64,000 nt of DNA from Eledone cirrhosa (taxonomy: Eukaryota), in the NCBI GenBank assembly GCA_964016885.1, contig OZ024740.1, forward strand, positions 324,384,001 through 324,448,000, written 5' to 3'. Both the position numbers and the translations under genes were made by a program. Within the stretch, counting starts at the first letter, position 1. Each line of letters opens with the position of its first letter. Below are positions 5,558 through 55,272 of the stretch, piece after piece. The notes under the pieces were generated by a model. It saw nothing but the letters and a program-made list of their open reading frames with translations. It was not told the DNA's origin and made no database searches.

Positions 5558-5662
5558 TTTCTGTCAGGAGTTGCAACTGGTAGATAGGTAGATAGTATCA
5601 GCAACAAGGAAAGACCAATGGAAACATATTTAAGATCAAAAGATGGTTAAAAGAGTTCCAAG

Positions 5663-5733
5663 TATTTTATTATGCGCATTTCAAAAACAAATATCATCAT
5701 GGGATGATATCTGCGTTTTCATCAGATAAAATA
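5663..5733 (-). ncRNA. Type I hammerhead ribozyme (PLE terminus, type C)
   Basis: Minus strand: TATTTTAT-CTGATGA-AAAc GCAGATATCATC ccat GATGATATTTGT tTTT-GAAA-TGCGCA-TA/ATAAAATA; 8-bp stem I, long stem II, palindromic stem III ATGCGCAT, AUA site. Confidence 0.85.
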
Positions 5734-5735
5734 GT

Positions 5736-5849
5736 GATACATGATATGAAGCTTAAAAAACACTTGTGGATAGTGAAGTTTTAAATCAACATATGTTGAT
5801 TTAAAACTTCACTATTCACAAGTGTTTTTTAAGCTTCATATCATGTATC
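5736..5849. repeat. 114-bp near-perfect palindrome with no spacer
   Basis: gatacatgatatgaagc...caacat|atgttg...gcttcatatcatgtatc; one mismatch. Confidence 0.95.
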
Positions 5850-6474
5850 CCTTATATCAATATATATATATATATATATCAATATATATATATATATATA
5901 TATATATATATATATATATATATATATATATATATATATATATATATATATATATCAATATATATATATATATATATATATATATATATATATATATATA
6001 TATATATATATATATATATATATATACACACACACACATACATATAAATACATACATGTACATACATATATATTTAGAACGATCGACAAGGTCCCAGACC
6101 TCATTCACTTACCGAGTGGAGTGGAATTCGTAAAATCGGACATATATATGCATGTATATATATATACATATATATATATGTGTGTGCGTGTGTTTGTATA
6201 TATGTATATATATATATATATATATATATATATATATATATATATATATATGTATGTGTGTGTATGTATGTATATATATATATATATATATATATATATA
6301 TATATATAAATGCAACAGTTATTTATTTATTTAATTATCTGTTTCAATCCTCGACTTCTTGACAAAATCGTCTCGAAATATCTTCGTATTATGGGTTATA
6401 CGAGACATATATTGCTAGCTTTCAAATAAATATTTACGTTGTTATTACACAACTACCAACATACATTCATATAC

Positions 6475-6725
6475 ACACATAGGGACGTACTACGCCACTA
6501 CTACAACCATACATATATACTTTTACACATATACACACGGACGGGACGTACTACACGACTATAATTATACATACACACATATACACATATACACATATAC
6601 ACACGGACGGGACATACTATACCACTATAATTATACACGAACACTTACTTATACACATATACACACGTACGAACGCACTACACCACCACTACACATACAT
6701 ACATTCACACACATATACTCACAAA
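6475..6725. repeat. Minisatellite of about 60 bp, 4-5 degenerate units
   Basis: Recurring acacacggacgggacgtactac..ac(c)actataattatac. Confidence 0.75.
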
Positions 6726-6742
6726 CGAACGTAGCGTATATA

Positions 6743-6821
6743 CGGAGTGTTCCTAAAGCATGTATGCACACATCAACAGCATTTTAATCAAAGTGTATAT
6801 ACATTTTTGGGGGACACCCTG
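6743..6821. mobile_element. Tiny Tc1/mariner-type MITE (about 80 bp)
   Basis: TA-flanked imperfect TIRs cggagtgttcctaaagcatgtat / atacatttttgggggacaccctg (CAGGGTGTCC-type end). Confidence 0.6.
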
Positions 6822-51039: not shown

Positions 51040-51285
51040 ATTACTCCAGGAGAAGCTCACTCTGATATAAAACCTGCAACTTCGTTTGCATGCAATGATG
51101 TAGACCAGTTCCTCTTTTTGGATAAATGCATTCGAAGTTCAGAGAGTGGATTGCCCCGTGAAAATTCTTTCCTCACTTAAAAAAACTTCATGTACAGGCA
51201 TCACTTAATATGTGATATTTTTTTGCGATGCATGCCATTGCTGGCCATAGGCAAGTCCTTAGCAGAACTAAAAAGCCACGTCTGT
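51040..51285 (+). mobile_element. Old non-autonomous RTE derivative
   Basis: ggagaag..ctctgatataaaacctgc..agagagtgg..ttcctcacttaaaaa..caggc, as in the RTE 5' UTR. Confidence 0.6.
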
Positions 51286-53030
51286 GATGCTCATACTTAA
51301 GTATCAAGCGTTGGTATTACATAAATCGAGTTGAGCCATCATGTATATATGCACATTTGTGAGTGTGTGTGTGTGTGTGTGTATGTGTGTATGTATGAAT
51401 ATTTGTATGTATGTATGTATGGATGTATGTATGTGTGTAGGTATGTATTTTTATGTGTATGTGTGTGTGTGTATGTGTGTGTGTATGTATGTTTTGCAAC
51501 CATTTAATCAGAACATCAACGGCATCAATCTCTTCCTTCTCGAGGTTGGATGGCTACGAAGCGAACTACATAGATAAGCATTGTCCCTTCCCCGAAACAG
51601 CAAAATAGAAATTATAAAAAATCCTACATGCATGTCACAACATCTGGTGATCTACAGCCACCTTGGAATACAGGACACTTGTGCTTAGTCATCTGATGGT
51701 AGCTGTGTGATATTTTCTTACTGTTTACACTAAGGAGGAAGTGATTTCAGATCATAAAATAACAAAACTTATATAAATCATATTATATAATTAGTTAAGT
51801 CAACAAAGTTTAGGCCTCATATTGTGTCTATGATTCTGTGTTTGTGTGTGTATATATATATATATATATATATATATACAGTATATACATATATATATAT
51901 ATATATATATATATATATATATATATATATATATACATATATATATATATACAGTATATACATATATATATATATGTATATATATATATATATATATATA
52001 TATATATATATATATATGTGTGTGTGTGTGTGTGTGTGTGTGTGTGTGTGTGTGCGTGTGCGTGTGTGTGTATGTGTGTGTGTGTATATATATGTATATG
52101 CGTATATATGTATATATATATATGTGTGTGTGTGTGTGTGTGTGTATGTGGTGCATGCTATGTATATATATATCTGCGTGTGTGTATATGTGCCTGTCTG
52201 TCTGCCTATGTATATATGTATGTATGCATGTATGTATGTATGTATGTATATGTGTATATGTGTATATATGCGTGGGAATTGACTCATACACAGGCTCCTA
52301 TGTGTTTGTGTAGATATTTATACATCTGCTTCCCTTTATATATGTATATGTATATACATATGCGTGTGCATGTGTGTGTGTGTGTGTGTGTGTGTGTGTG
52401 TGTGTGGTGCATGCAAGGGATGATTGCACTGGGTAGGTCAGATTAGAATTAGCGAAGAATGTGGTGGGGTGAGGGGGACAACTTCCTTATTTAAAGTAAC
52501 TCTACTCTGTGCTGTTTCAGTTTGCACGTACATTTAACACCATGACCATCACCATCATCATCATCATCATTGCCATCGCTACCACATTCACCACAACTAG
52601 CGCCACCATACTCATTACAAAAACCACCAACACCACGCATCGACTTGTGAAATAGTAGTAGTAGTAGTAGTAGTAGTAGTAGTAGTAGTAGAGTAGAGTA
52701 GAGTAGTAGTAGTAGTAGCTGTAACTAGTTTCCAGAAAAGAAAGACAGTTTATATATATATATATATATACATATATATATATATATATACATATATATA
52801 TATACATATATATATATATACATATATATATATATACATATATATATATATATATATATATATATATATATATATATATATATATATATATATATATATA
52901 TATATACACACATATATATATATATATATATATATATATATATATATATACACACATATATATATATATATATATATATACACACACACACATATATATA
53001 TATATATATATATATATATATATATATATA

Positions 53031-53246
53031 ATGTGAGTCCCAGGTTCAATCGGGTGTAACTACAGTTAGTAAGGCACCCAATACATTTCTAGAGTGTAAA
53101 CATCATGTTTGATAAAAAAAAATGGCTTTTACAGGACTGGATCTGTTTCGTTCAAAAGAAATCATCAGGAAAGTCAACTTTCTTAATGATTTCTTTTGAA
53201 TGAAATAGTTCTAATCATGTAGGAGCCATTTCTATATTAAACATTA
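53031..53246. mobile_element. Fold-back mini-element (about 215 bp) of family B termini, two HHR remnants head-to-head
   Basis: 53035-53173 is homologous to the reverse complement of 29557-29690; 53178-53243 is homologous to 29558-29622. Confidence 0.78.
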
Positions 53247-54059
53247 TATAGTGTGTATGTATATATATATATATATATATATATATATATATATATATAC
53301 TGTACATATATACATACATACAAACATACATACACACTCACATACACATATATATATATACATATATATAATAATAATCATACTAATAATAATAATAAAG
53401 AAACAGATTTGAAAATATTCCTCAAACCTTCAAGTAATTAACACCACAGAAAAGTAAAATATATACATATAAAAACTCTAAAACTCTAAAAATGAAAATA
53501 TGCAACATATATAAATACAACACATATATATTCAACACACACACACACACACACACTTATATATATATATATATATATATATATATATATATATATATAT
53601 ATATATATATATATATATATACATACAACCTATATATATATATCTACAAAGCAATGTTTCGAAATTTGTAAAACAAAACCAAGAGAAACAAGTTAAAGCA
53701 GCAACAACAAATATAACAAGCAAGCTAGTCTTCCACAAGAGATTTTTGAAATGTTGAAATGGCGCCAGGAGAAGTTCCTTGCACTAAGGCATATGTTCCA
53801 AGTCTGTAGCTTACTTCTCAACATGATATTGAAATTTTATATACATGCATGCATGTGTGTGTGTATGTGTGTGTGTATGTTCTTCTGGTTTTATAATTTC
53901 ACAAATTTTGTATGTATGTATGTATGTATACATGTATGTATGTATGTACGTACGTACGTAGCTATGTATGTTTGTATGTATGTATTTGTGCGTCTATGTA
54001 TGTATGCATGCATTTGTGCGTGTATGTGTGTATCTATGTCATATGTCAGGTATGTCAGT

Positions 54060-54672
54060 ATGTCAGGTCACCAGTTGGTGCTACTGGTAACATGTAACCC
54101 AGTACAACCTGTCCCATGGTCGCGTCGTTGGCGACTAAACTGGCAACCCCACCAAGGTTTCTTGGTGAGGAGGGTGACTTTGGACATCCTGCAGGACTAA
54201 AAACAAAACCTGTCAAAGGGCAAAGGAGCTCTTAAGAGTCAATGGCCATCTAAAATCACCGGGAGAGATTTCCCCTTAGCCTTTGTCAAGGCAGAATACT
54301 AGGAGAAGGAAATCTCTGATATAACACCTGCAACTCTGATGGTATCCAATGATGTTGACTTGTTCTTCTTTTTGGTAAATATCATCTTGGTTAAGAGAGT
54401 GGGACTGGCTTTGTGCAGTGCCTTTGCTCACTATAAAAGCTTCACGGCACAGGCATTGCTTTATATCTGGAGATCTCTCTGCACTTGTCGTCACATGGTA
54501 CCAACGGCCCAGCACTATGTGTCAATAATTGTCACAAGTGTAGTGTTTGTACCAGAGTTTTCAAGTCGCTGGCTGGACTAAAAAGTCACACTCGTTCAGC
54601 GCATTGGTAGGGGTTCTCCTACATAGATATAAAGTAGTGGCCGTACTCGAAAACGAGTTGGCAGCCACCATG
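54060..54672 (+). mobile_element. Bipartite non-autonomous RTE derivative (5' UTR plus 3' end)
   Basis: 5' UTR homology to 44070-44288; retains the last C2H2 finger CSVCTRVFKSLAGLKSHTRSAH*; ends tggccgtactcgaaaacgagttggcagccacc. Confidence 0.8.
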
Positions 54673-55224
54673 TGTGTATGTATGTATGTACGTAGCTATG
54701 TATGTTTGTATATATGTATTTGTGCGTCTATGTATGTATGCATGCATGCATTTGTGTGTGTATGTATGTATGCATGTATTTGTGCATATATGTATTTACA
54801 GATGCATGTGTCTGTGCATGCATGCAAGTATATATGTGTATGTATATGTATGTATATATGTATATATGTATGTATGCATGTTTGTATGTATGTTTGTTTG
54901 TTTAACAACAACTTCAAAATGTCATTCTCTTTATTATGGTCATTATTTTTATTAATATCATTTAATGTGATACATACACACACACACGCACGCACACACA
55001 CACGCACGCACACACACATACACACGCACGCACACACACACACACACACACGCACACACACACACACGCACACACGCACGCGCACATACACACATACACA
55101 CACACACACACACATACACACACATATATATATATACATATAAATATGTATATATATATATGTACATAGATACATACATACATATATGCATATATGTATA
55201 TATATATATATATATGTACATATA

Positions 55225-55272
55225 TCGTTTCTGAATTTGTTTAGCAACATGACCCTCCCAAAGTATAGCAAT
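55225..55272. mobile_element. Mini-element of about 48 bp made of the two ends of PLE family A
   Basis: cgtttctgaatttgtttagcaa is the reverse complement of 20600-20621; gcaacatgaccctcccaaagtatagcaata matches 20537-20566; the two overlap at gcaa. Confidence 0.75.

Follow-up and report, generated by a model that had tools for sequence, protein, structure and literature searches.

The window analysed here is a stretch of 64,000 nucleotides from the 3.0-Gb genome of the octopus Eledone cirrhosa (contig OZ024740.1, 324,384,001-324,448,000; positions below are those of the window). It harbors six insertions, each situated between tracts of (TA)n, which are derivatives of Penelope-like elements (PLEs) and fall into three families (termed A, B and C). 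Each consists of one tailed (‘long’) and one untailed (‘short’) PLE terminus, both pointing outward. An initial annotation had called six such insertions in (TA)n, and masked self-comparison, together with direct reading of the letters, confirmed all of them at the positions given there. The same annotation placed the start of the series at 5580; that position belongs instead to a seventh element (5476-5852), in which the right arm ends before its hammerhead ribozyme (HHR) and never reaches a short end. The parts of these elements, including segments of open reading frames (ORFs) and untranslated regions (UTRs), are as follows (signed numbers for family A refer to a natural copy used as a ruler):

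17431-20136, minus strand: element 1, family A short-end arm (0 to -2725 on the ruler copy; 2.7 kb; 5'-truncated)
20134-20624, plus strand: element 1, family A long-end arm (-452 to +57; 491 nt), overlapping the short arm by 3 nt
20315-20323, plus strand: motif that we take to be YY1-like, at -257, adjoining the pile-up of family A arm 5' limits; predicted transcription start region
20371-20413, plus strand: predicted family A hammerhead, degenerate and minimal (4-bp stem I, bulged stem II, 1-bp stem III; 59 distinct copies)
20568-20624, plus strand: family A tail, 57 nt, equal to codons ~9-27 of the ORF start
24150-26104, minus strand: element 2, family B short-end arm, including a ~1.4 kb microsatellite-rich 3' UTR
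26099-29692, plus strand: element 2, family B long-end arm, 5'-truncated within the endonuclease (CxxC...CxH remnant at 26099-26416)
29527-29557, plus strand: predicted family B start, with TATAAATA at -30 and initiator (Inr)-like CCAGATT (+1 = 29557); the wall formed by the 5' limits of the arms lies at the same place
29558-29606, plus strand: predicted family B type I hammerhead, with U.U at the first stem II pair and a predicted cut after 29601
29625-29692, plus strand: family B tail, about 68 nt
48217-48650: element 3, family C fold-back, with the short arm and its intact HHR motif (48259-48321, minus strand) on the left and the long arm on the right
49979-50252, minus strand: element 4, family C (second subfamily) long-end arm, HHR motif at 50109-50173
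50255-50375, plus strand: element 4, family A short-end arm (-119 to 0)
53031-53246: element 5, decayed B-type fold-back, long arm left and short arm right, arms ~77% alike
55225-55272: element 6, family A minimal insertion of 48 bp, an inverted tail tip (+30..+55) plus a short tip (-33..0)
5476-5852: seventh element, C-related; one arm bears an HHR (core 5725-5671, minus strand), and a 120-nt palindrome occupies the centre

The arms of element 1 (17431-20624) are 96.5% identical across 434 nt; those of element 2 (24150-29692; tail ~68 nt) are ~96% identical over ~1,980 nt, matching at 498 of 498 positions in their unique part, and the long microsatellite-rich 3' UTR of family B is present in both (24670-28990). 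A deletion runs through the HHR of the long arm of element 3, the two tips of element 6 are joined over a few shared bases, and element 4 (49979-50372) is a rare C/A chimera, in which a family C long end is joined to a family A short end. The minimal hammerhead of the seventh element is clean, with a GCGC loop. The terms ‘fold-back’ and ‘retro-palindrome’, applied by the initial annotation to the whole series, suit elements 1, 2, 3 and 5 but not elements 4 and 6, which have no inverted repeat between their arms. The accompanying term ‘non-coding’ is correct for the small members but not for elements 1 and 2, which retain broken reverse transcriptase (RT)/endonuclease coding sequence (visible in the short arm of element 1 as a frameshifted RT and CX4CxxC-GIY-YIG translation), nor for the family A tail. 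The latter is coding because tandem copies of family A (L091, L093, L103) continue from the long end into the ORF; in read-through copies both family A ends sit at A-ATAT-CG. The terminus of family B likewise runs into the ORF start in read-through copies L085 and L154, and no partial-tandem read-through was found for family C.

Natural copies of family A encode RT motifs (YVDD) together with a GIY-YIG endonuclease at the C-terminus, and those of family C likewise an RT and GIY-YIG endonuclease (translations read by eye in both cases), while only a C-terminal endonuclease remnant was seen in the family B copy examined. Judged by the clade-defining motifs in Craig 2021 (PMC8557442), family A appears to have a Neptune/Nematis-type layout, its CX4CxxC linker upstream of GIY-YIG falling within the CX2-5CxxC definition of that clade. 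Family C appears to be Hydra-type, with all three Hydra motifs (a CxCX5C linker, CxxC, and CxH around conserved E and N), and family B would be so in part (CxxC and CxH only; the CxCX5C linker is missing from the copy examined). The hammerheads in the pseudo-long terminal repeats (pLTRs) of all three families are predicted ribozyme motifs. A strict scan found three cores in the window, as against none in each of 20 shuffles, and the stem II pair of family C varies among G-C, A-U and G-U; in families A and B the hammerhead is matched by relaxed patterns only. A search of the window against Rfam gave no match at the gathering threshold (and, for the family B terminus, none by E-value either), and a Pfam search gave none for the PLE fragments of the window.

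As regards family A itself, its ORF (L091, L103, L264) contains an N/T/H-rich insert of low complexity upstream of the RT, reminiscent of the N-rich inserts in rotifer Penelope. A sister family (L330, L333, L336 and others) has the family A short end in common and differs in its upstream part and tail. The long end occurs in two registers 2 nt apart, at +57 (~80 copies) and +55 (~21 copies), and the short end in one.

The pairing of a long with a short end is near-obligate for two-armed insertions and holds far beyond the window. A genome-wide count of family A with gapped patterns (tail-out pairs 20-500 nt apart) returned 4,237 long/short pairs, 83 short/short and 34 long/long, such that unlike ends make up 97.3% of the total, as against an expectation of 50%, and like ends less than 3%. 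Inspection of the first ten short/short exceptions identified five as adjacent separate insertions, two as clear and two to three as possible short/short elements; four of the first ten long/long exceptions were true. Exact family A matches across the genome comprise 12,789 short ends followed by TA and 11,714 that continue into the tail. The first 42.5 Mb of contig C1 harbors 100 short and 90 long family A anchors; where two of these adjoin in tail-out orientation, the pair is long/short in 37 of 42 cases (P = 2e-7). At the level of loci, these same 190 anchors yielded two-arm elements that were long/short in 78 of 82 cases, short/short in two and long/long in two; a tiny long tip was noted beside eight further short ends (some of them uncertain), and three anchors represent internal read-through.

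The rule extends to the other families. Among 60 family B loci, 33 records (31 of them unique) were long/short and none was truly short/short, and in 26 no partner could be discerned over a span of 1.5 kb; a single long/long pair (C995) is known from coordinates alone. A short/short call at L115 was rejected as a false internal match. Family C has 43,178 cores genome-wide; of 64 core matches, the end lies no more than 19 nt away in 37 and 95-119 nt away in 23, and a count by eye of its tail-out pairs gave 16 long/short and one short/short. Joins between families were seen at 27 loci, in most of which (TA)n lies between the two; the few that are free of TA, which may stem either from two templates or from deletions, were long/short at L307, L314 and L321 (and at the complex L303), with L313 ambiguous. 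Two conditions that the initial annotation regarded as fatal to its interpretation did not hold: the family A end points are discrete rather than scattered, and like pairings form less than 3% of the total.

The same data speak to the idea that the small elements are units resembling miniature inverted-repeat transposable elements (MITEs) copied whole, or else post-insertion rearrangements or assembly artefacts. A MITE is expected to have symmetric terminal inverted repeats (TIRs), and here the tail distinguishes the two ends in ~97%; homogeneous, unit-amplified copies are expected as well, and the small family B elements display 25 different junction strings among 26, and therefore stem mostly from separate events. 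Lengths (those of family A included) and junctions form a continuum between 48 bp and 8.6 kb, over thousands of loci, and RT/endonuclease coding remnants lie inside elements. A few junctions do recur (L136/L148 and, nearly, L168/L169), assembly of palindromes within (TA)n is difficult, and the C/A chimera of the window could be a deletion across two neighbours. Nonetheless, long/short asymmetry with subfamily-matched, non-identical arms is unlike an assembly fold-back, and we regard this explanation as largely refuted and very improbable. Target-site duplications are unreadable inside (TA)n; contigs and restriction-site-associated DNA (RAD) reads aligned to the window were swamped by other copies and left its junctions unbridged, and so favour neither side.

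How two unlike ends come to be joined is constrained by the relative lengths of the arms, whose 5' limits are independent of each other. Of 65 simple family A elements, 33 have a short arm that extends beyond the long one on the 5' side, 18 show the opposite and 14 have arms of equal reach; eight have a long arm that stops inside the tail or at its border, leaving a non-overlapping inversion. The junctions of these elements overlap by 1-7 nt in 33 cases and by more in seven, are flush in seven and contain inserted bases in 18. Since a longer short arm (33/65) or non-overlapping arms (8/65) cannot arise by snap-back of a single cDNA, two primings are implied. The contention of the initial annotation, that two cDNAs begun at two defined 3' starts are joined, is supported and survives a test that excludes single-primer snap-back; it also fits with the in vitro cleavage and extension of both strands by a PLE from two sites (Frangieh 2024, PMC11167929).

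An older pair of suggestions would have the inversion come first. Arkhipova 2013 (PMC3846280) described a 31-bp tail optionally present on one inverted pLTR and proposed self-priming on an antisense template; according to Craig 2021 the tail is often confined to a single end, which was ascribed there to resolution by the endonuclease. Inversion by self-priming or through hairpin DNA, followed by staggered resolution that leaves a tail on one side, would account for the equal 5' limits in 14 of the 65 elements (some at a local palindrome, at -112) and for the presence at both family A ends of ATAT, an AT-rich motif resembling a cut site, and would be expected to give identical arms. It is distinctly doubtful, however, because one folded-back cDNA cannot yield the arm lengths just described, and the in vitro RT start sites of another PLE fall on both ends (PMC11167929).

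The subfamily variants within the arms suggest a source in common. Across 35 family A elements whose arms overlap for 100 nt or more, 391 of 405 comparisons at variable sites are concordant, as against 58% expected at random (the sites being linked), and the distance between arms is 2.6%, as against 6.4% between elements. A few elements are discordant at two to three diagnostic sites. Those few cases would suit a dimer in which the two subunits of an asymmetric complex carry one RNA apiece and start from different sites, with matching arms attributed to a common source locus or to one tandem transcript. Such an arrangement would explain the overlap of most arms with no need for strand displacement, would allow for C/A joins (element 4 and other loci), and is in keeping with the dimer predicted for the anole PLE (PMC11167929). 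The concordance at 391 of 405 sites despite several coexisting haplotypes argues against it, and the eight long arms stalled inside the tail suggest a second complex on the same RNA; we consider separate RNAs unlikely, if still a serious alternative.

The 5' limits of the arms also pile up. In family B, the limit lies at -68..-55 for 51 of 62 arms and at -69..-86 for none of them; a TATA-like box is located at -97 and an Inr-like base, which we take to match the Inr consensus, at -67, the predicted start (+1). In family A, 25 of 226 arm limits fall at -285..-250, as against five and four in flanking windows, 50-80 nt upstream of the hammerhead and beside motifs that are presumably YY1-like and NRF1-like. 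Both pile-ups are predicted to mark the start of pLTR transcription. Schostak 2008 (PMC2377424) located the promoter within the pLTR. The arms pass through the predicted ribozyme cut site, and the template was therefore likely uncut there.

We consider it probable that both 3' ends of a cut prime reverse transcription of one RNA, from two fixed sites, and that the resulting cDNAs are joined head to head. The endonuclease would cut both strands of (TA)n; on a single RNA, one DNA 3' end would then prime from the downstream site and its partner from the upstream site, so that the two sites delimit the tail, with a fixed asymmetric complex (perhaps a dimer) assigning one start site to each DNA end. 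Each cDNA would halt independently or run off the 5' end of the RNA, and the two would be joined by microhomology or end joining; overlapping arms would require strand displacement or two identical RNAs, and the smallest elements may consist of two cDNAs that ran off their template at its 5' end, at the pLTR promoter. What is observed are the products alone; the sequence of steps, the dimer and the use of one template are inferred.

Several points weigh against this twin-priming scheme. The rule covers two-armed insertions only: 55 of the 190 family A anchors (~30%) have no inverted partner, with three more undecided. True short/short and long/long family A elements occur, at ~1% (L332, L335, L338, L342, L345, L346), and among the rare C/A joins L311 and L320 are short/short. 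The concordance of the arms could also stem from gene conversion or from source copies active together, and the sites are linked. The wall in family B coincides with the 5' edge of the hammerhead (-66) as well as with the predicted start, and family A has a second, smaller cluster of limits at its HHR edge (-194..-207), so that a block imposed by RNA structure may likewise cause the walls. Lastly, the start site in the in vitro study, which did not match up the two ends of one cut, was the same on top and bottom strands (PMC11167929, as far as the available text goes).

The architecture is a known one (an inverted pLTR with a tail on one arm, and two tail-delimiting RT starts), found here in new families, and the novelty claimed for it by the initial annotation was overrated, a tail on only one inverted pLTR being already in print (Arkhipova 2013, Craig 2021). 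The octopus families resemble the canonical endonuclease-positive PLEs (PMC3846280; PMC8557442, Fig. 2; PMC2377424) in their head-to-head inverted copies, one-end tail overlapping the ORF start, partial tandems, pLTR HHR, (TA)n targeting and junction palindromes; in the latter, however, the tail is 30-40 bp and is described, from few copies, as ‘optional’ or ‘often’ one-ended, whereas here it is 57-90 nt, paired in ~97% over thousands of loci, in families bearing the motifs of two clades. With the Poseidon element of Anolis carolinensis studied in vitro (Frangieh 2024), they would have in common two internal start sites that delimit the tail, cutting and extension of both strands, and a template uncut at the HHR (here, the arms run past the predicted cut site). 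Beyond the lack of a strand difference, that study differs in that its available text contains nothing on inverted copies or the pairing of ends, and in that it describes the start site as lacking homology to the target, whereas here family A ends share up to 4 nt (ATAT) and those of B and C ~1-5 nt.

A further parallel is the twin priming of L1 retrotransposons, which accounts for a minority of insertions, uses a second site that varies and gives parts that mostly do not overlap; here, in contrast, both sites are fixed, the product is the main outcome and the arms usually overlap, although the family A elements whose long arm stops in the tail (8/65) do form a non-overlapping inversion as in L1. 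Common to both are two primings at one target site, with microhomology joining and inversion (Ostertag and Kazazian 2001, as summarised in PMC10760644). As small, non-coding, HHR-bearing derivatives of pLTRs, with MITE-like TIRs, the small elements also recall non-LTR retrozymes (bioRxiv 10.64898/2026.07.22.740005) and MITEs. Retrozymes, however, form head-to-tail tandem arrays; the present elements are likely dead-on-arrival products rather than a replicating unit, because they are head-to-head and asymmetric and their junctions are mostly unique. The full-text literature covered (outside which lie most subscription papers, including the 2005 and 2006 PLE reviews) yielded no quantified pairing rule for PLEs, no test for a same template through subfamily variants common to both arms, and no report that either arm can be the longer or that arms pile up at a run-off wall at the pLTR start.

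The remainder of the window is rich in other repeats. On the minus strand lie an apparently intact two-ORF long interspersed element (LINE) at 34464-39841 (a 642-aa ORF1 and a 1,150-aa ORF2 with apurinic/apyrimidinic (AP) endonuclease, RT and zf-RVT) and, at 40422-44153, a second long LINE ORF, also apparently intact, of 1,243 aa, with AP endonuclease, RT and C-terminal C2H2 fingers. Broken ORF fragments at 31365-33677 (plus strand) and 61338-63892 (minus strand) presumably belong with non-LTR elements of the restriction enzyme-like (REL) endonuclease type. A very abundant repeat resembling a short interspersed element (SINE) is found at 21813-21998, 49049-49237 and 59708-61234, with several copies clustered at 59.7-61.2 kb. 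Short repeats adjoining (TA)n at 23921-23989, 29721-29787, 48743-48835 and 47900-48060 (near-palindromic over 47914-48060) may be further TA-targeted termini.

The making of tandem and inverted PLE structures was named an open problem in Craig 2021, and the first in vitro study of a PLE (Frangieh 2024) left the later steps unvalidated. What is added here is the strictness of the pairing and a set of constraints that render the mechanism testable: near-obligate long/short pairing, with arms from the same source, makes a sharp prediction for the existing in vitro assay. Tens of thousands of such termini are present in the genome, and the asymmetry of their ends separates the small elements from MITEs. 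A broader reading, on which our own judgement is evenly divided, is that asymmetric twin priming is obligatory for PLE integration, with a single complex placing both ends of a double-strand cut on two fixed sites of one RNA, the inverted pLTR being the second cDNA rather than an accessory rearrangement; near the 5' end of the RNA both cDNAs would run off at the pLTR promoter, in the manner of retroviral strong-stop DNA, so that the smallest palindromes would map the start to within a few bases, and the rule would be common to Neptune- and Hydra-type PLEs. If this is true, twin priming, a side reaction in L1, would be the main route of integration in a class of retroelements that is sister to telomerase.

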